Numbered from the stretch's first letter, positions 3,250 to 21,155 are shown. The stretch: 32,000 nucleotides of DNA from Candidatus Lokiarchaeum ossiferum (GCA_025839675.1 CP104013.1:3870001-3902000); one strand, 5' to 3'. The notes: generated by a model from the letters alone, not told the origin. Made by a program: numbers and translations.

Positions 3250-3671
3250 CTATAATTTTATAATTGTGATTCAAAATATAAGTCTTATTTCACAAGATTG
3301 AATAGAAGTATTTTGATAAGAAAAGAGTGAAAAAAGAGAACTGAGTATTTTTAAACTTAAAAAAATGGATAATCAAACAAAAAAAATAGGAATCAAACAG
3401 GAATATCTCTCCTATCGAAGATCATTATAGAAGAAATTGTCAATACCAAGGTATATCCGAATAAAATCAACATATCTCGCAGAACATTTTCATAACTGTG
3501 AGAAACCATAATTCTCGCGGGTTCGTAGTAGAAAAAGATACTCAAGAATTTAATATCTTGGATATTTTCTTGAAAACTGGTGTAGAAGGTGCCAATTACG
3601 AAGAACACAACAAAAATTCCGAAAGCCGCTCCCGTTGCATTCTTTCTATTTAAGAACGTTGAGAAAAAGAA
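3200..3671. repeat. copy B of the ~472-bp near-identical direct repeat
   Basis: See copy A (841..1312). Covers the first 50 nt of the 1453..3249 CDS, the 143-bp intergenic region and the last ~279 nt of the permease CDS. Confidence 0.9.
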
Positions 3672-4208
3672 GGCTGTAGTTGTCAAAGATAAAATTAATA
3701 AAAATGCCCATGTTAGTGCTGTAATAAATTCTGCGGTATTAATTTCTTGATCTTTCAGATTTGGGAGAATTAAGATGAGTAAGGCAGTAATTAATCCCAT
3801 GGAAATTATAACTGTGAGAATCGTAAATAGAAATCTCAGATATCGCCCGAGAATAAATTCCCATCGCTTCACCGGTTTGCTTAAGATTAAATCAATCGTT
3901 TTATTTTCAATTGTGGATGGAATATCTTGACCTGCTTTTAAGACAAAGTATATGCCTAGCCACATCCAAATCATGGCCAGAAATTCTACAGTGTAAAACC
4001 CCGCAAAAGTAGTCATATCAAGCACTCCCCCTACCATATCTAGAATCGCTTCAGGATAGTTAGCCACTAAATCTTCAAAATCGACAAAGAGGTCAGGGTC
4101 GAATATCACGGCGATCATTAGAACAAATAAACCCATAATGATCGAAAGGAGTAGGGTCGATTTGAGACTCTTTTTGATTTCAATCTTAGTAATTGTGAGA
4201 AGGCTCAT
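3393..4208 (-). CDS. ABC-2 type (NosY-like) transporter permease
   Basis: 271-aa ORF with about 6 hydrophobic helices. Its start overlaps the upstream ATPase stop by 4 nt (ATGA), which implies translational coupling. Typical ABC-2 architecture. Confidence 0.8.
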   Translation of the reverse strand: MSLLTITKIEIKKSLKSTLLLSIIMGLFVLMIAVIFDPDLFVDFEDLVANYPEAILDMVGGVLDMTTFAGFYTVEFLAMIWMWLGIYFVLKAGQDIPSTIENKTIDLILSKPVKRWEFILGRYLRFLFTILTVIISMGLITALLILILPNLKDQEINTAEFITALTWAFLLILSLTTTAFFFSTFLNRKNATGAAFGIFVVFFVIGTFYTSFQENIQDIKFLSIFFYYEPARIMVSHSYENVLRDMLILFGYTLVLTISSIMIFDRRDIPV

Positions 4209-5788: not shown

Positions 5789-7003
5789 TTACCTGTTTTT
5801 AATCATATATTGTTCAAGACGCTGAGGTTTTTTGTAAGTTTGTTGAGATGCATAAGTTTCTAAGGTACGAGTTGATTTTATGAATTTTCGATAGATTTTG
5901 ACATCAATGATATCAAGATGGGAAAGAAACCATTCGCGCAAAGGTTTATCCTCAAAGTCTATTAATCGTGAAGGGGGATTTCCTTTGAAAACAATATAAA
6001 GCACGGGTAAGGAACGCGAATTTTTCAGGATTTGATCGTTTTTTTGAATTAAAAACGGGTTTTGTCTGATGATTTCGTGATTGATTTGAGCATAAATTTC
6101 TGACATAGATTGGTAGCTTTTGGAAAAAAACACGGTGATCCATTCAATTGGCCTATTTTTTAGCTTTATCAAAGAAATTTTCTGGCGAAATATCCCCTTG
6201 GACCCTGATATTTCTCCATAAAAGACACCTTTCTGAAATGTATTTTCTCCCGCAGAAACTGCTTGTGCACAACCAGGATTAAAAATCCATCCCTGAAGTG
6301 AATATCCTAAATGGTAATGTCCTAAACCTAAATAATCCACACGATCTCGCAGGCAAGATACTCGATGAAGTGATTGCCCTGGTACACCTTTCATCTGCCC
6401 TTGGATTCCGAAATGTTGAAGAAGAATATGAAACATTCCATCTTGGTCATTAATTCCCTCCCGAATTAAGTGAATTTTTTTTGGTAATTGCTTGCCTAAA
6501 TAACTGGAGCCATAAATGACACAATTCTTTATAATCACTTTTCCTCCTTTACGTAAAATAGGATCAAAAATGCTAAATCGCTGTTCTGGTTGATTTTCTA
6601 AATCTGCATCCAGAAGGATCAACATTCCCAATTTATTTAAAATCCGAAGCCATGATTGTCTACGCGGAATTTGGTTTCCATGGGAATATCTGCGGATATC
6701 GTGGTTTCCTTCAATTGCAATTATAGGAATCTTTTCATTGGTTCTTTGTTTAAAATCCGATAATATATCAATAATTTGTTCCATTTGATTAGGCAATAGA
6801 TCCTGTGATGTGAAAATGTCTCCTCCCAAGATTATAAAATCGACCTGTCTGTCAATCGCTAACGTCAAAATTTGCTGGAAGGCAAATAAATGATCATCGG
6901 CAAGCAAAGGATTCTGATATTGCTTAGATCCGAAGTGTAAATCGCTTGCATGTAGGAAACGAGTGCTTTTAGTATTGGTGGAAATATTTTGGGAAGAATT
7001 CAC
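5789..7003 (-). CDS. Mre11/SbcD-family calcineurin-like metallophosphoesterase (putative nuclease)
   Basis: Ordered phosphoesterase motifs: HASDLHFG (D-x-H), ILGGDIF (GD), IEGNHD (GNHD), LLQHFG (H), GLGHYH (GH-x-H). The N-terminal layout is typical of Mre11/SbcD. The ~120-aa C-terminal region is not recognisable. The start appears to be GTG. Confidence 0.8.
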   Translation of the reverse strand: MNSSQNISTNTKSTRFLHASDLHFGSKQYQNPLLADDHLFAFQQILTLAIDRQVDFIILGGDIFTSQDLLPNQMEQIIDILSDFKQRTNEKIPIIAIEGNHDIRRYSHGNQIPRRQSWLRILNKLGMLILLDADLENQPEQRFSIFDPILRKGGKVIIKNCVIYGSSYLGKQLPKKIHLIREGINDQDGMFHILLQHFGIQGQMKGVPGQSLHRVSCLRDRVDYLGLGHYHLGYSLQGWIFNPGCAQAVSAGENTFQKGVFYGEISGSKGIFRQKISLIKLKNRPIEWITVFFSKSYQSMSEIYAQINHEIIRQNPFLIQKNDQILKNSRSLPVLYIVFKGNPPSRLIDFEDKPLREWFLSHLDIIDVKIYRKFIKSTRTLETYASQQTYKKPQRLEQYMIKNR

Positions 7004-7116
7004 AATGCTCTAGGATATCAATTCTCCCCCAAAAAGTAAAGCACGAAGCAAGATTACTATATTTTTACAATTTTCTCATAGTTATGGAGAAAAAAATTCC
7101 GTAAAAACTATCAGTT

Positions 7117-7827
7117 CTACTTTAATTGAATCTGAATTGGTGCAAAAGAAAATTGTTTAGTCTGACCTGAAAACACAAATTCTGATGTAATCGGATAGAG
7201 AATATAGACTCCGGGATACCCTTTTTTAATGTTCCACGGCACATTTCCTACAATAATCTCTCCCGGATTGATGGTATTTGGTTGGGGAGTGTCTAATTTC
7301 TTGCCAAGCATTGTGAGCAATTCATTGCCTTGTAAATCTCCTAAACGAAATCCACATGGTGTAATATGCACTTGTTCATAAGTTACTGGTTGGTCTGTAA
7401 TATTTTTCATTAAGAGTGTCAAATTACCTTCGTACATTGCTTCATTTTCTTCAGAACTTGTCGAATATATAGTTCCTTCATCTAAGAAAAAGGAAAATTC
7501 TAATCCACTCTCTTGCTTATCCTTAATTTTGCGAATGATAGGAAGATGTTTAACATCCATTTCATGCACCAGTGAAATCGTTCCCTCTTCTAATATGTCT
7601 AGCGCGTCAGTGAGTTTTTTAAATAGTTGTTCCTCTTCGGATTTTGCTGCGTAGAGTTGAATTGGTTCATTTTTGGTGGGAATATCATAGTACATGGCAA
7701 TAAGCTTGCGGGAATCTTTTTCAGAATCATCAAATTCAAAGTGACTGAGTTGTAAACCGTATTTTTCTGCAAGAATTTCGATTTTGGATTTATCGGGAAT
7801 GTTTTTTGCAGCAATTTTCAAAAGCAT
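7117..7827 (-). CDS. hypothetical protein (no recognisable motif), between the HerA-like and Mre11-like genes
   Basis: 236-aa ORF with an ATG start, 31 bp downstream of the HerA-like stop. The N-terminal half is acidic/helical-looking. The C-terminal half is beta-rich (NPGEIIVGNVPWNIKKGYPGVYILYPITSEFVFSG). No catalytic signature identified. Confidence 0.6.
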   Translation of the reverse strand: MLLKIAAKNIPDKSKIEILAEKYGLQLSHFEFDDSEKDSRKLIAMYYDIPTKNEPIQLYAAKSEEEQLFKKLTDALDILEEGTISLVHEMDVKHLPIIRKIKDKQESGLEFSFFLDEGTIYSTSSEENEAMYEGNLTLLMKNITDQPVTYEQVHITPCGFRLGDLQGNELLTMLGKKLDTPQPNTINPGEIIVGNVPWNIKKGYPGVYILYPITSEFVFSGQTKQFSFAPIQIQLK

Positions 7828-7858
7828 AGGAAAATTAAAGGAAGGAAGAAAAAATATT

Positions 7859-9607
7859 TTATCGTTTTTTCTTTTTCATAGCAGCAACACAACGTTCTGC
7901 TAAAGCAACGGCATCATCTGCCCGCTTGGTTTCATTTTTCAATTTAGCCTTCAATTCTTCATTTTCCACTTTCACACCAGACATTTCCAGCTGAAGAGTT
8001 TGTTGAAGAACACGAATGGCATCCCGATCATCAATTGTTTCTTGTAATTGGATGGTGAGATCGTCTTTTTCCTCCATAATTTCAAGCATTTTTTCATCAT
8101 ACATTTCCCCGGGCAATGGAGTATCCGAGTTTTCCGCGTTTAGATTTGGAATAAGGTCATTAATATCGTGAAGAAGGGTGGTTTTCTCAGATTCAATATT
8201 ATTTTTAGATATATCCTCCATTTTGACCGTTTTTTGGGATTCTAAATCTAACAGGTTTTGCTTCATATTAAGATTTTCTTTCCGTAATTCATCAATTCGA
8301 GCATAGAGTTCAGATGGACTCAATTTTTGCGTTTTCAATACATCTTGAGATGCCTCTTCAAGAATACTTGGATTGAATGAATTTCGCAACCGTTCTACCA
8401 AAGCCGCTTTTGGTAAGATCTCTCCATTCTCAATAAAGTCTAGAGGATTATATCCTGCTCCACCGTGAATGGTATATCTTTTCCGAATTTTTACATATAA
8501 CGGACAGAAAGGAGACACATCTCCTGTGATTATGGCTTCCCCAGGAGATAAATTTTGGATTTCTTCATCAGCATCATTGGTCAACCCTTCGGCTGAATTG
8601 CAAGTGATTTTGATATCATTTAGATCCGTGAGTTTATGGATAATCCATGTTCCCGCTTGAGCTCTTATTGTAACGTCTAGAAGCTGAGGTTTTTGAGTGA
8701 TCACCACAAGATTGTGACCGAATTTTCTACCTTCTTGAGCTGAAAGTTTGAGGGTTTTTGTTATAGCTGTTTTTTTCTTACCAGCAAAAAGGTGTGCTTC
8801 ATCTATAAACAAGTAATGGGGTGGTATTTTCCGGAGAGTACTCGCTTTATATAGTTGATAGCAAAAATGATTGACAAAATTCTCCTGGACTGGAATATCT
8901 AGCCCGGAAAGGTTGATAATTATCACATTTCCAGATGTGATTAAATCCTCGATGTTCGCCGCCAAGAGATAATCTAAATTCAAATCTGCACCAGGATTAA
9001 CTTTAAGATCGCCAAACTCAATTATTGAGGCAGCATATTTCTTTTCTCGATCTTCAAGTTTAAAAAATGCTTCTTCTGGAGGAATGTTTTCTTTATCTAA
9101 CAATTTTAGAGATGAATATTCCCCATGGCGATCAATAATTACCAAAGGAATTCTTTTTTTCATTAATTCTTCAATTATAACTCCAACTGTGTAGGATTTT
9201 CCTGAACCAGATTTTCCCGTTATAAAAACCCTACCCAATTTTTCAACATTGATATTTCCATCAATAGTTGTGTGCAAAATTTTGCCTAGATGAAGAGCTT
9301 GTTCATCCATAATATTTAAGCCGATAGCATCTTTGATTTCTTCATCTTTTGCGTCATAAATTTCTGTCGAAATATCAAAGGGACTTAGGGGAGGCTCCCC
9401 GATAACATTCACCTTTGCATGGTATCCATTTTGATCATTCCATAACTGTTGAATTCCTAAAACATAGTTTTTATCCTCACATTGGGCGGACAGATATGAA
9501 TTTTTATGAATTGGATGAATTAAATTAACTTCAAATCCAAAAGGGGTTGTTTTTCCTTCAATTTTTGCGATAGCATTCGATTCGACAACTGGGGATTTAT
9601 CAGTCAT
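7859..9607 (-). CDS. HerA/FtsK-superfamily (DUF87-type) P-loop ATPase with a C-terminal coiled-coil extension
   Basis: Walker A ITGKSGSGKSYT followed by VIIDRHGEY. Walker B YLFIDEAHLF. Also GRKFGHNLVVITQKP and a ~110-aa N-terminal barrel-like region. The last ~180 aa are heptad-like and charged (ELYARIDELRKENLNMKQNLLDLESQK...LQQTLQLEMSGVKVENEELKAKLKNETKRADD). Confidence 0.85.
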   Translation of the reverse strand: MTDKSPVVESNAIAKIEGKTTPFGFEVNLIHPIHKNSYLSAQCEDKNYVLGIQQLWNDQNGYHAKVNVIGEPPLSPFDISTEIYDAKDEEIKDAIGLNIMDEQALHLGKILHTTIDGNINVEKLGRVFITGKSGSGKSYTVGVIIEELMKKRIPLVIIDRHGEYSSLKLLDKENIPPEEAFFKLEDREKKYAASIIEFGDLKVNPGADLNLDYLLAANIEDLITSGNVIIINLSGLDIPVQENFVNHFCYQLYKASTLRKIPPHYLFIDEAHLFAGKKKTAITKTLKLSAQEGRKFGHNLVVITQKPQLLDVTIRAQAGTWIIHKLTDLNDIKITCNSAEGLTNDADEEIQNLSPGEAIITGDVSPFCPLYVKIRKRYTIHGGAGYNPLDFIENGEILPKAALVERLRNSFNPSILEEASQDVLKTQKLSPSELYARIDELRKENLNMKQNLLDLESQKTVKMEDISKNNIESEKTTLLHDINDLIPNLNAENSDTPLPGEMYDEKMLEIMEEKDDLTIQLQETIDDRDAIRVLQQTLQLEMSGVKVENEELKAKLKNETKRADDAVALAERCVAAMKKKKR

Positions 9608-9812: not shown

Positions 9813-10178
9813 TTATCGCTTCACTAATTTATAGGTCTTATATTCCGTGACTCCCTCAATAGCACCTTCTTTTACGGGAACTCGGACAAACATACTATCA
9901 TCGATTTGTTGCGGTTGTTTGGCAAGAGTAATTTGGTTTTGTTGATATTTTTGAAATGATTTGGCAGCGTCCAGCTCATGTATTAAAAAATCACGAACTG
10001 CAACTCGAATGAGTTCACTGCGGCTTGGATATAGACCTTTTTGACCTGTTAGTGCGTCAATTGCTTTTAAATAAGATACCGGAAGATTAACTGTGATTAT
10101 TCTCAAATCTGTCCACACACCGTTAGTATTGATTGTAAACCTTACATTTCCTCTAAAACGAGACGAAACGTAAAACAA
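9813..10178 (-). CDS. ribbon-helix-helix (CopG/NikR-N-like) DNA-binding protein
   Basis: RIITVNLPVSYLKAIDALTGQKGLYPSRSELIRVAVRDFL is a classic RHH strand-helix-helix. The ORF has no ATG: the track start at 10178 is TTG, and another TTG at 10106 would start directly at (M)RIITV. The start is therefore uncertain. Confidence 0.7.
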   Translation of the reverse strand: MFYVSSRFRGNVRFTINTNGVWTDLRIITVNLPVSYLKAIDALTGQKGLYPSRSELIRVAVRDFLIHELDAAKSFQKYQQNQITLAKQPQQIDDSMFVRVPVKEGAIEGVTEYKTYKLVKR

Positions 10179-10491: not shown

Positions 10492-10812
10492 TTAGTGTTT
10501 TAACTTGTGATAAAACGAAATAAAGTCATTTGGCATTGATGGTTGTTTATCTATCATGGGAATTGGCTGATAATTCTTCCAATCTTTCGCTGATTCCAAT
10601 TCTTCTATTAAAAATTCACGAACAGCACATCGGATTAATTCTGATCTACTTGGATATAATCCTCCCTTTGTCAATTTTTCAATGGCTTTCAGATAAGTTT
10701 CTGGGACATTTACAGTTATAATTCTAATACTCCATCTCCGCCTTGTAATTGCCTTTGAGAGAAAAATAATCTCAGTTAAATATTTATAATCTAATTCTGT
10801 GGTACAAATCAC
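10492..10812 (-). CDS. ribbon-helix-helix (CopG/NikR-N-like) DNA-binding protein, paralogue of 9813..10178
   Basis: RIITVNVPETYLKAIEKLTKGGLYPSRSELIRCAVREFL. The core is roughly 70% identical by eye to the neighbouring RHH. GTG start at 10812, with no in-frame ATG before the RHH strand. Confidence 0.7.
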   Translation of the reverse strand: MICTTELDYKYLTEIIFLSKAITRRRWSIRIITVNVPETYLKAIEKLTKGGLYPSRSELIRCAVREFLIEELESAKDWKNYQPIPMIDKQPSMPNDFISFYHKLKH

Positions 10813-20414: not shown

Positions 20415-21155
20415 ATGAAGATTCTCCTTCTTAGTGATCTATCAAATCGTGTTCCAAAAATCCCCATTGAAGTTATTCAATCATGTGATTGTGTTTTACT
20501 GGCGGGAGATATTACAATGGGTGCCCGAAGTGAACGATTGATTATTAAAGTTTTTACAAAACTCGCAGCATTGTTCCCAGCACCCCTACCCGTATTCTTT
20601 ATTCCAGGAAATCATGATCATCCAGACCTAATGGAATCTCCTTCCTATATTCCAGAAAATTTCTTTCAAATGCATAATAAGATTTCGATGTTTTCTCCTG
20701 AAGTAGAAAATTCTGATATTAAATCTCTTCTTCTTCTCGGTTTCGGAGGTGCAACCCCCATTCCAGGATTTCCAAGTGGGCCTGGTCCAAACTATATCAC
20801 TTTTACCGAAGATGAATTACGGGATCAATTGACAAATCTGTTTTCAGAAACCACATACCTTCGTAAAAATGCTTCCATTTGTACAATTTTATTTGTGCAT
20901 AATCCTCCCTTTAATACCACCTTAGATTTAACTCATCAACTAGTGCATGTTGGTTCAAAATCTGTTCGGGATATCATTGAAAACTATTTTCCTGAGGTTT
21001 TCATCGCAGGGCATATTCATGAATCAAAAAGTATTGAATCATTAGGAGATACTCTTATGATAAATCCTGGTGAAGCAAAGTATGGACATTACGCAGTTAT
21101 TGATATCTCCAAAAATCAAATCACGTCTAAGCTAGCGAAAGTTGAAAAAGCCTGA
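20415..21155 (+). CDS. calcineurin-like metallophosphoesterase
   Basis: Motifs LLLSDLS (D), LAGDIT (GD), IPGNHD (GNHD), FVHNPP (H), AGHIHES (GH-x-H). A GAGGGG Shine-Dalgarno-like element lies just upstream of the ATG. Confidence 0.8.
   Translation: MKILLLSDLSNRVPKIPIEVIQSCDCVLLAGDITMGARSERLIIKVFTKLAALFPAPLPVFFIPGNHDHPDLMESPSYIPENFFQMHNKISMFSPEVENSDIKSLLLLGFGGATPIPGFPSGPGPNYITFTEDELRDQLTNLFSETTYLRKNASICTILFVHNPPFNTTLDLTHQLVHVGSKSVRDIIENYFPEVFIAGHIHESKSIESLGDTLMINPGEAKYGHYAVIDISKNQITSKLAKVEKA

Follow-up and report, generated by a model that had tools for sequence, protein, structure and literature searches.

What a HerA-family ATPase gene and an Mre11-family nuclease gene do together, when neither rad50 nor nurA accompanies them, is the question raised by a locus of Candidatus Lokiarchaeum ossiferum that lies within a stretch of 32,000 nucleotides (GCA_025839675.1 CP104013.1:3870001-3902000), referred to in its whole length as the window. 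In Sulfolobus and Pyrococcus, the canonical archaeal herA-mre11-rad50-nurA operon serves DNA end resection. No known prokaryotes are more closely related to eukaryotes than the Asgard archaea, and eukaryotes retained Mre11-Rad50 and not HerA-NurA; to our knowledge, DNA-end processing in the Asgards is essentially unstudied. A preliminary description of the window had singled out three co-directional genes, encoding a HerA/FtsK-type ATPase, a 236-amino-acid (aa) protein and an Mre11-like phosphoesterase, as a possible ATPase-nuclease machine for repair or for defence against foreign DNA. The analysis reported here leads to a different picture, namely a core-chromosome locus of the Lokiarchaeales, and not a mobile or defence element, at which two Asgard-wide paralogues of resection genes stand side by side.

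Gene content of the locus

All three genes lie on the minus strand, with the motifs and spacings that had been described for them. The ATPase gene (9607..7859, 582 aa), recognised by Pfam and PDB matches, is followed after 31 bp by the 236-aa open reading frame (ORF; 7827..7117), a conserved ORF belonging to a small Asgard-only family, and this in turn, after a gap of 113 bp, by the phosphoesterase gene (7003..5789, 404 aa), recognised by a Metallophos match and a predicted fold. Walker A (GKSGSGKS; 9194..9217, aa 131-138) and Walker B (YLFIDEAH; 8792..8815, aa 265-272) can be read in the translation of the ATPase, as can the motifs ASDLH, GGD, GNHD, QH and GHYH in that of the phosphoesterase. 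Each gene is under purifying selection, the ratio of nonsynonymous to synonymous substitution (dN/dS) against the closest relative, locus L001 (L-numbers denote the homologous loci that were compared), being 0.10 for the ATPase, 0.05 for the 236-aa protein and 0.13 for the Mre11-like protein, and all three are genuine coding genes, whose products are 100% identical to NCBI entries from L. ossiferum. The absence of Rad50 and NurA from the window was likewise borne out, with no Rad50/SMC or NurA found in Pfam scans of window ORFs of at least 100 aa, an ABC permease-like ORF at 3393..4208 excepted.

Conservation of the neighbourhood across Asgard archaea

Neighbourhoods of the ATPase family were compared by tblastn, phmmer and ORF clustering at 80 species-level genome loci, none of them from L. 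ossiferum; P. syntrophicum MK-D1 is represented by L002 and L005, and Harpocratesius by L003 and L007. Neighbouring ATPase and Mre11-like genes with an RHH gene upstream are found at six of the eight loci of a single Lokiarchaeal clade (the window, L001, P. syntrophicum, L008, L172 and L173). The Mre11-like gene lies directly 3' of the ATPase gene and is co-directional with it, across spacers of 74 bp in MK-D1, 86 bp in L172 and 66 bp in L173; in L008 the first tblastn match to the Mre11-like protein begins about 58 bp downstream of the ATPase gene, with the Mre11-like gene split over two frames, and on the fragment L116 the two genes follow in this order 75 bp apart. Only in the window and L001 does the 236-aa gene intervene. 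Of the trio that had been put forward as a conserved unit, the ATPase and the Mre11-like gene thus hold together in one Lokiarchaeal clade, but the 236-aa gene is confined to Lokiarchaeum and L001; the ATPase is followed directly by the Mre11-like gene in P. syntrophicum and four other members, the middle gene is an insert, and the notion of a three-gene machine has to be given up.

The Mre11-like neighbour is missing in L006 and Harpocratesius. In a rough neighbour-joining tree, drawn without support values, the RHH-linked loci are monophyletic and members with an adjacent Mre11-like gene fall on both sub-branches, so that the adjacency is ancestral to the clade. A common order of genes encoding M28 peptidase, ParA/Mrp, two CitMHS transporters, RHH, RHH and the ATPase, with a GNAT gene farther along, can be followed through the window, MK-D1, Harpocratesius, L172 and L173, and the locus is therefore part of a stable chromosomal backbone. 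In the published comparison of L. ossiferum with P. syntrophicum, the genes of the locus are entered as consecutive shared orthogroups, assigned to SbcD/Mre11 (ORTHOMCL847, cog.000249), a HerA helicase (ORTHOMCL848, cog.000044) and an RHH regulator (ORTHOMCL849, cog.000100) in Supplementary Table 2 (PMC9834061).

Elsewhere the two genes go separate ways. In the remaining Asgard species, about 72 in number, the ATPase gene has neither an Mre11-like nor an RHH gene within 10 kb, and its typical neighbours are an LPG_synthase_C-like gene on one side and an M42 peptidase gene on the other, across spacers of 120-190 bp. Flanking genes of about 309 and 357 aa were considered as hidden nucleases and rejected, being these same LPG_synthase_C-like and Peptidase_M42 genes, and no NurA adjoins the ATPase in the window or at any of the roughly 80 related loci. 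Both families are Asgard-wide and vertically inherited, with one top-scoring copy of each per genome, and in most Asgard genomes they occupy separate housekeeping loci; it follows that the Mre11-like gene was relocated beside the HerA-family gene.

The HerA-like ATPase

The best PDB sequence match of the ATPase is Sulfolobus HerA (4d2i, E 2e-23). ATPase residues 72-178 align with residues 93-195 of that protein, and PADLOC HerA models span aa 82-169, which points, as far as sequence can tell, to an N-terminal barrel-like region. Because the Pfam match to the DUF87/HerA central domain (E 1.3e-16) covers positions 2-69 only of a profile of 220, and because the alignment with 4d2i jumps over HerA residues 196-291, the RecA-like core is compact and lacks the helical insert of HerA. 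Scores against the NCBIfam models HerA_Thermprot (112 bits, cutoff 800) and helicase_HerA (71 bits, cutoff 970) are far below those expected of an equivalog. The motor residues are intact: G131, S133-S138 and K137 of Walker A and D269, E270, A271 and H272 of Walker B are invariant in 14 family members, and an EGRKFG arginine motif and a TQ(R/K)PQ motif are invariant across the aligned Asgard homologues.

The family corresponds to asCOG cog.000044 and comprises 623 homologues at E < 1e-5, most of them 550-600 aa long; among the 120 homologues listed, every one with a named source is Asgard, from Lokiarchaeia, Helarchaeales, Hodarchaeales, Hermod-, Odin- and Heimdallarchaeia. A scan of viral contigs, informative for the ATPase family, found no relatives; the 236-aa family alignment was too divergent to scan with.

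Beyond the core, the ATPase carries a C-terminal tail of about 190 residues (aa ~396-582; 7862..8422), in agreement with the coiled-coil tail that had been proposed for it. The tail abounds in E, K and L, has few G and P residues, and shows a heptad-like periodicity by a crude heptad score and composition; two coiled-coil segments are predicted, at about aa 421-476 and 505-575, on either side of a proline-containing break near aa 477-504. Sub-threshold Pfam matches to the coiled-coil families NET2A_C, KIF21A_4th and ZapB in the tail of one family member (P0055) are consistent with this prediction. No CxxC zinc hook is present in the tail, and the predicted terminal helix is conserved, with L552, A566, A570 and K578 invariant in the alignment.

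Several relatives differ in their surroundings. A textbook operon of herA, mre11, rad50 and nurA occurs at L161:4847-11748, on a contig with proteins that carry the name Candidatus Sigynarchaeum springense, so that at least one Asgard lineage keeps the canonical operon; its HerA is matched by DUF87 at positions 3-220. In the sister clade of the RHH-linked group (L009:9513-11795 and L010), the ATPase is about 500 aa long with a shorter tail and belongs to a tight three-gene arrangement, the upstream gene encoding 148 aa in L009 (32-bp spacer) or 137 aa in L010 and the downstream gene 96 aa, with spacers of 1 and -4 bp. These small flanking proteins have no Pfam match, and may be another set of partners for this ATPase family. 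The locus L082 (DATKTW010000168.1), labelled 'Candidatus Nanopelagicaceae bacterium', encodes an Asgard ATPase with 37% identity between an upstream LPG_synthase_C-like gene and a downstream M42 peptidase gene, and is probably a mis-binned Asgard contig.

The short Mre11-like nuclease

The phosphoesterase is matched by Pfam Metallophos at E 6e-12, and its best PDB sequence match is P. furiosus Mre11 (1ii7, E 5e-14); against NCBIfam it reaches 72.5 bits for Mre11_Pyroc, with a cutoff of 600, and 49.4 bits for TIGR00619 sbcd, with a cutoff of 77.65. The protein falls in asCOG cog.000249, and its family has 321 matches, typically of about 394 aa and 42-47% identical, that are frequently annotated as SbcD or DNA repair exonuclease. 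The eight metal-ligand and catalytic residues, D21, H23, D62, N100, H101, H197, H229 and H231, do not vary among 36 sequences. An AlphaFold2 model built on a 36-sequence alignment has a mean predicted local distance difference test score (pLDDT) of 81, with about 51 over the last 30 residues. All of its top 50 Foldseek matches in the PDB are Mre11/SbcD structures, aligned across nuclease and capping domains over 380-460 columns, the best being 3dsd (E 3.6e-18), and target-normalised TM-scores for P. furiosus Mre11 entries are 0.66-0.74. The predicted fold is that of a nuclease plus a capping domain.

What distinguishes the protein is where it ends, some 15-30 residues past the capping domain. 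A metagenome scan centred on the family separated two classes of Asgard Mre11, the window protein belonging to class 1. When the classes are aligned, a conserved C-terminal extension of at least 70 residues is found in every Rad50-linked Asgard Mre11, and class 1 lacks it. The genomic contexts also differ. At 48 of 71 loci a class 1 gene has a membrane-anchored PHP phosphoesterase encoded after it and a divergent CTP_transf_like gene before it, and Rad50 lies beside none of about 75. Class 2 proteins are 500-564 aa long, share 28-36% identity with the window protein, and are encoded in operons of the order superfamily 1 (SF1) helicase (about 1,490-1,500 aa), Mre11 and Rad50 (795-909 aa; best NCBIfam model Rad50, 219 bits). 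One metagenome-assembled genome (MAG), CAZBPC01, combines a helicase-Mre11-Rad50 operon (L170) with a HerA-like family member (L043). Because class 1 lacks the extension, and because this genome contains a Rad50 operon as well as the HerA-like gene, the short protein is best read as a Rad50-independent paralogue.

The PHP partner is a protein of 515-545 aa with an N-terminus of several transmembrane segments; it is CehA/McbA-like and weakly similar to 5'-3' exoribonuclease/RNase RNM (for example L085:11264-12877, L086:11325-12869 and L087:11350-12951), and about 45 further PHP-paired loci are found among L090-L153. The gene of about 530 aa that follows the short Mre11-like gene was considered as a divergent Rad50 and rejected, being this membrane PHP phosphoesterase instead. 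The helicase-Mre11-Rad50 operon is itself conserved (L158:3508-12313, L164, L165, L166/L168, L169, L162 and L170:5521-14220), and its helicase has AAA_11/AAA_12 domains with an IGHMBP2/Upf1-like C-terminal core; it looks like an alternative to HerA-NurA as a resection partner of Mre11-Rad50. A second metallophosphoesterase of 539-556 aa, with Metallophos in its C-terminal half, is encoded convergently to the locus in L172 (9022-10641) and in Harpocratesius (L003:10375-12033 and L007), where it persists without an Mre11-like gene. It was rejected as an Mre11 relative, being unrelated at E < 1e-2 and without an NCBIfam name.

The inserted middle gene

Neither Pfam nor PADLOC nor NCBIfam has a match for the 236-aa protein, as its description as a protein without recognisable motif would lead one to expect, and yet it is not a strict ORFan. 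A word-indexed search returned a sole close homologue, 86% identical (L001), and an exhaustive HMMER search added 11 distant full-length relatives of 22-28% identity, those with names being hypothetical proteins from Promethearchaeota or Helarchaeales MAGs. Searched with a hidden Markov model (HMM) of the family, the other HerA-like and Mre11-like loci had no member nearby, and the genes of about 220 aa that lie downstream of some ATPase homologues were rejected as relatives. The contexts of the distant relatives have nothing to do with HerA or nucleases, and include a Mg-chelatase-like AAA+ gene with a GFO_IDH oxidoreductase, Roadblock with Cas6, and gelsolin with Arf. Several members lie near genes of the eukaryotic-signature type, for Roadblock/LC7, gelsolin-domain proteins and Arf-family GTPases (L174:4212-5708, L176:5001-8975 and L088:7124-8620), which may be chance, such genes being common in Asgards.

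Similarity to NurA was looked for and not found, there being no Pfam NurA match and an hhalign probability of 0.4% against the Sigynarchaeum NurA. Invariant residues of the family are M1, D48, N142 and G175 only, one of them acidic. An AlphaFold2 model from two sequences was unusable (pLDDT 40), and the family profile matched F-actin-capping protein beta in the PDB at an E value of 0.17, which is not significant. Pfam scans of individual members gave only sub-threshold matches to beta-sandwich or Ig-like families (Wzt_C, Cep192_D4, MOV-10 Ig-like and DUF1573), a hint that the C-terminal half could be a beta-sandwich. The dN/dS of about 0.05 indicates strong purifying selection on this gene, and is to be read with a dS near saturation.

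The 31-bp gap between the ATPase and 236-aa genes is equally long in L001, so that the two may be co-transcribed, although the T-rich spacer also contains a TATA-like stretch. In the 113-bp spacer on the other side of the gene (7004..7116, minus strand), runs of five and of seven T occur together with a TATA-like stretch rich in A and T. In L001 a gene for a methyl-accepting chemotaxis protein (MCP) of 866 aa, encoded on the opposite strand (L001:2673-5273), has inserted exactly in this spacer; MCPs form the largest L. ossiferum-specific orthogroup, ORTHOMCL0, in the published table (PMC9834061). Taken together, the middle gene is a recent, genus-level insertion that appears to encode neither a nuclease nor a substitute for NurA, and its product would be at most a lineage-specific accessory factor.

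Upstream and flanking genes

The two RHH genes reported upstream of the ATPase gene were recovered by RHH_1 and RHH_8 matches, both on the minus strand: RHH1 (9813..10178, 121 aa, RHH_8/RHH_1, asCOG cog.000100) and RHH2 (10492..10812, 106 aa, RHH_1 at E 6e-8). The pair is found only where the ATPase shares 50% identity or more with the query. RHH1 orthologues of 60-71% identity precede the ATPase gene in L002/L005, L003/L007, L006 and L008, a conservation that exceeds that of the ATPase itself (50-61% outside L001), and an RHH gene also occupies this position in L172 and L173. RHH2, a paralogue of RHH1, is kept in the clade as the second upstream RHH gene. The best NCBIfam matches of the two are to CdrS, a regulator of cell division in haloarchaea (E 3.8e-9 and 36 bits for RHH2, with model NF058555, and E 1.6e-5 and 25 bits for RHH1, the cutoff being 100 bits), whose function has been described (PMC7439475), and both match Sulfolobus aCcr1 at E 2e-4 and 4e-4, with about 20 bits against a cutoff of 60. 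No ftsZ or ESCRT gene was found among the window ORFs scanned.

The rest of the window encodes, by Pfam, transporters, a histidine kinase, oxidoreductases, ParA/Mrp and peptidases. A small metallophosphoesterase of 246 aa (window 20415-21155; Metallophos_3/Metallophos_2) lies beside the ParA/Mrp gene and has a 245-aa counterpart in P. syntrophicum (L002:3531-4268); it belongs to the conserved backbone and is unrelated to the Mre11-like gene.

What the pair may do

Each paralogue is without the part that ties its canonical relative to a partner: the Mre11-like protein has no Rad50-binding region, and the ATPase has lost the insert, has no adjacent NurA and has gained a tail. We tentatively favour a functional Rad50- and NurA-independent pair for end processing under RHH control, with a rough probability of 0.45; the physical or functional coupling of the two proteins and the role of the tail are what we infer. 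A dimer of the Mre11-like protein would nick or trim the DNA end, and a HerA-like hexamer would load on duplex DNA and translocate along or unwind it, with the coiled-coil tails giving oligomerisation, tethering or partner recruitment. The pair could then act on DNA ends, or on stalled or branched DNA, without Rad50 or NurA, and the two upstream repressor-type RHH proteins would set its expression. A bolder form of this idea, in which the coiled coils of a hexameric HerA paralogue tether in the manner of Rad50 arms throughout the Lokiarchaeales, both cultured species included, alongside an Mre11 paralogue lacking the Rad50-binding domain and with the 236-aa protein as a genus-specific adaptor, strikes us as improbable.

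Several observations weigh against a functional pair and favour an incidental adjacency, in which the ATPase would be a stand-alone housekeeping DNA translocase with an FtsK-like task such as segregating chromosomes or clearing DNA, possibly under cell-cycle RHH control, and the Mre11-like protein would work separately, ancestrally with the PHP protein. The clade keeps the surrounding synteny (ParA, CitMHS and RHH) as well, so that the adjacency could be inherited order with no functional meaning, and this order has been lost in L006 and Harpocratesius. The solitary position of the ATPase between the LPG_synthase_C-like and M42 peptidase genes in the large majority of Asgard species, and the usual placement of the Mre11-like gene between CTP_transf_like and PHP genes, a pairing that suggests that each protein has its own ancestral function, fit this account, as does the resemblance, under cutoff, of the RHH proteins to the cell-cycle regulators CdrS and aCcr1. 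The MCP insertion in L001 makes it probable that the Mre11-like gene is transcribed independently there, and in L. ossiferum too it probably has its own promoter. Incidental adjacency could well be correct, if on balance doubtful. It has difficulty with the fact that relocation recreated the canonical archaeal herA-mre11 linkage in a co-directional arrangement, an unlikely outcome by chance, and that the order has been retained on both sub-branches of the clade with operon-like spacers of about 60-90 bp.

The other two accounts fare much less well. A reading of the locus as a HerA-plus-effector defence against viruses or plasmids, with the Mre11-like and/or the 236-aa protein as effector, would draw on matches of PADLOC HerA and mad8 models to the ATPase (E 1e-29 to 1e-8) and on weak matches of a PADLOC endonuclease effector model and of the NCBIfam DS9_1 and DS8 anti-phage phosphoesterase models to the N-terminus of the Mre11-like protein. 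These matches are generic and family-level, however, and repair HerA and Mre11 match better than any other NCBIfam model or PDB entry; with both genes vertically inherited across the Asgards, each genome having a single top-scoring copy of either in a stable housekeeping gene order, no defence genes or defence island nearby, no relatives of the ATPase among the viral contigs scanned and no Sir2, DUF4297 or other known effector, the defence role entertained in the preliminary description has become very improbable. Harder still to credit is an ordinary herA-nurA-mre11-rad50 locus from which rad50 has been relocated and in which the 236-aa protein is a divergent NurA. Its appeal lies in a gene order (ATPase, small protein, Mre11-like) that resembles canonical operons and in HerA and Mre11 being the best named matches; the 236-aa protein, however, has no similarity to NurA and a single invariant acidic residue, and is missing from this position in P. 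syntrophicum and other clade members, and operons of the canonical type in Asgards use a longer Mre11 and a HerA with a full DUF87. Nor is this the only HerA locus of the genome: Supplementary Table 2 lists a NurA-domain orthogroup (ORTHOMCL228) and the HerA orthogroups 126 and 648 in both L. ossiferum and P. syntrophicum, so that NurA and other HerA paralogues exist elsewhere in both genomes (PMC9834061). No Rad50 entry appears among orthogroups 0-1997 of that table, where shared groups are still being listed at 1997.

The outcome cautions against reading the gene trio as one system, the middle gene being a recent insert and the defence idea unsupported. The ATPase and Mre11-like families have already been entered in the asCOGs with generic annotation, and, as far as we have found, their domain deviations and clade-specific pairing are undescribed, the literature searched on Asgard HerA, NurA, Mre11, Rad50 and coiled coils having yielded no description of this family or locus. 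Two uncharacterised phylum-wide families became neighbours in the lineage to which L. ossiferum and P. syntrophicum, the only Asgards in culture, belong, and a biochemical test of a Rad50-independent Mre11 pathway is therefore feasible.

Comparison with known systems

The FtsK/SpoIIIE translocases belong to the same superfamily as the Lokiarchaeal ATPase, and share with it a stand-alone housekeeping distribution across the phylum and an extra domain on the motor; the idea of HerA as an analogue of FtsK is said to go back to Iyer et al. in 2004. Unlike FtsK/SpoIIIE, the ATPase has no membrane anchor or gamma domain, its predicted barrel-like region is of the HerA type, and no link to division genes was seen. 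The defence systems Sir2-HerA and DUF4297-HerA (PDB 8xau, 8wiv, 8j4u and 9c1m) likewise draw on this superfamily and set a HerA-type ATPase beside a partner other than NurA, but the window ATPase is less similar to them than to repair HerA, has no Sir2 or DUF4297 effector, and is encoded in the core genome.

On the nuclease side, the window protein shares with Mre11/SbcD of P. furiosus, T. maritima and E. coli the invariant motifs I-V and a predicted nuclease and capping fold, and differs from them in lacking the C-terminal helix-loop-helix that binds Rad50 or SbcC and in having, in class 1, a membrane PHP phosphoesterase as its usual neighbour. The Asgard SF1-helicase-Mre11-Rad50 operon (L158-L170) also encodes an Asgard-type Mre11 homologue, and one MAG that possesses it has the HerA-like family as well, whereas the operon itself has a longer Mre11 with the extension, a Rad50 and a helicase, and no HerA-like gene.

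The closest parallel is the herA-mre11-rad50-nurA operon. The Lokiarchaeal ATPase departs from canonical HerA in the loss of the helical insert, in its coiled-coil tail of about 190 aa and in scores far under the equivalog cutoffs, and the locus departs from the operon in having RHH regulators upstream and neither rad50 nor nurA. What the two arrangements have in common is an ATPase of the HerA superfamily encoded co-directionally beside a nuclease of the Mre11 family, with the Walker and arginine motifs of the one and the di-metal site of the other intact.

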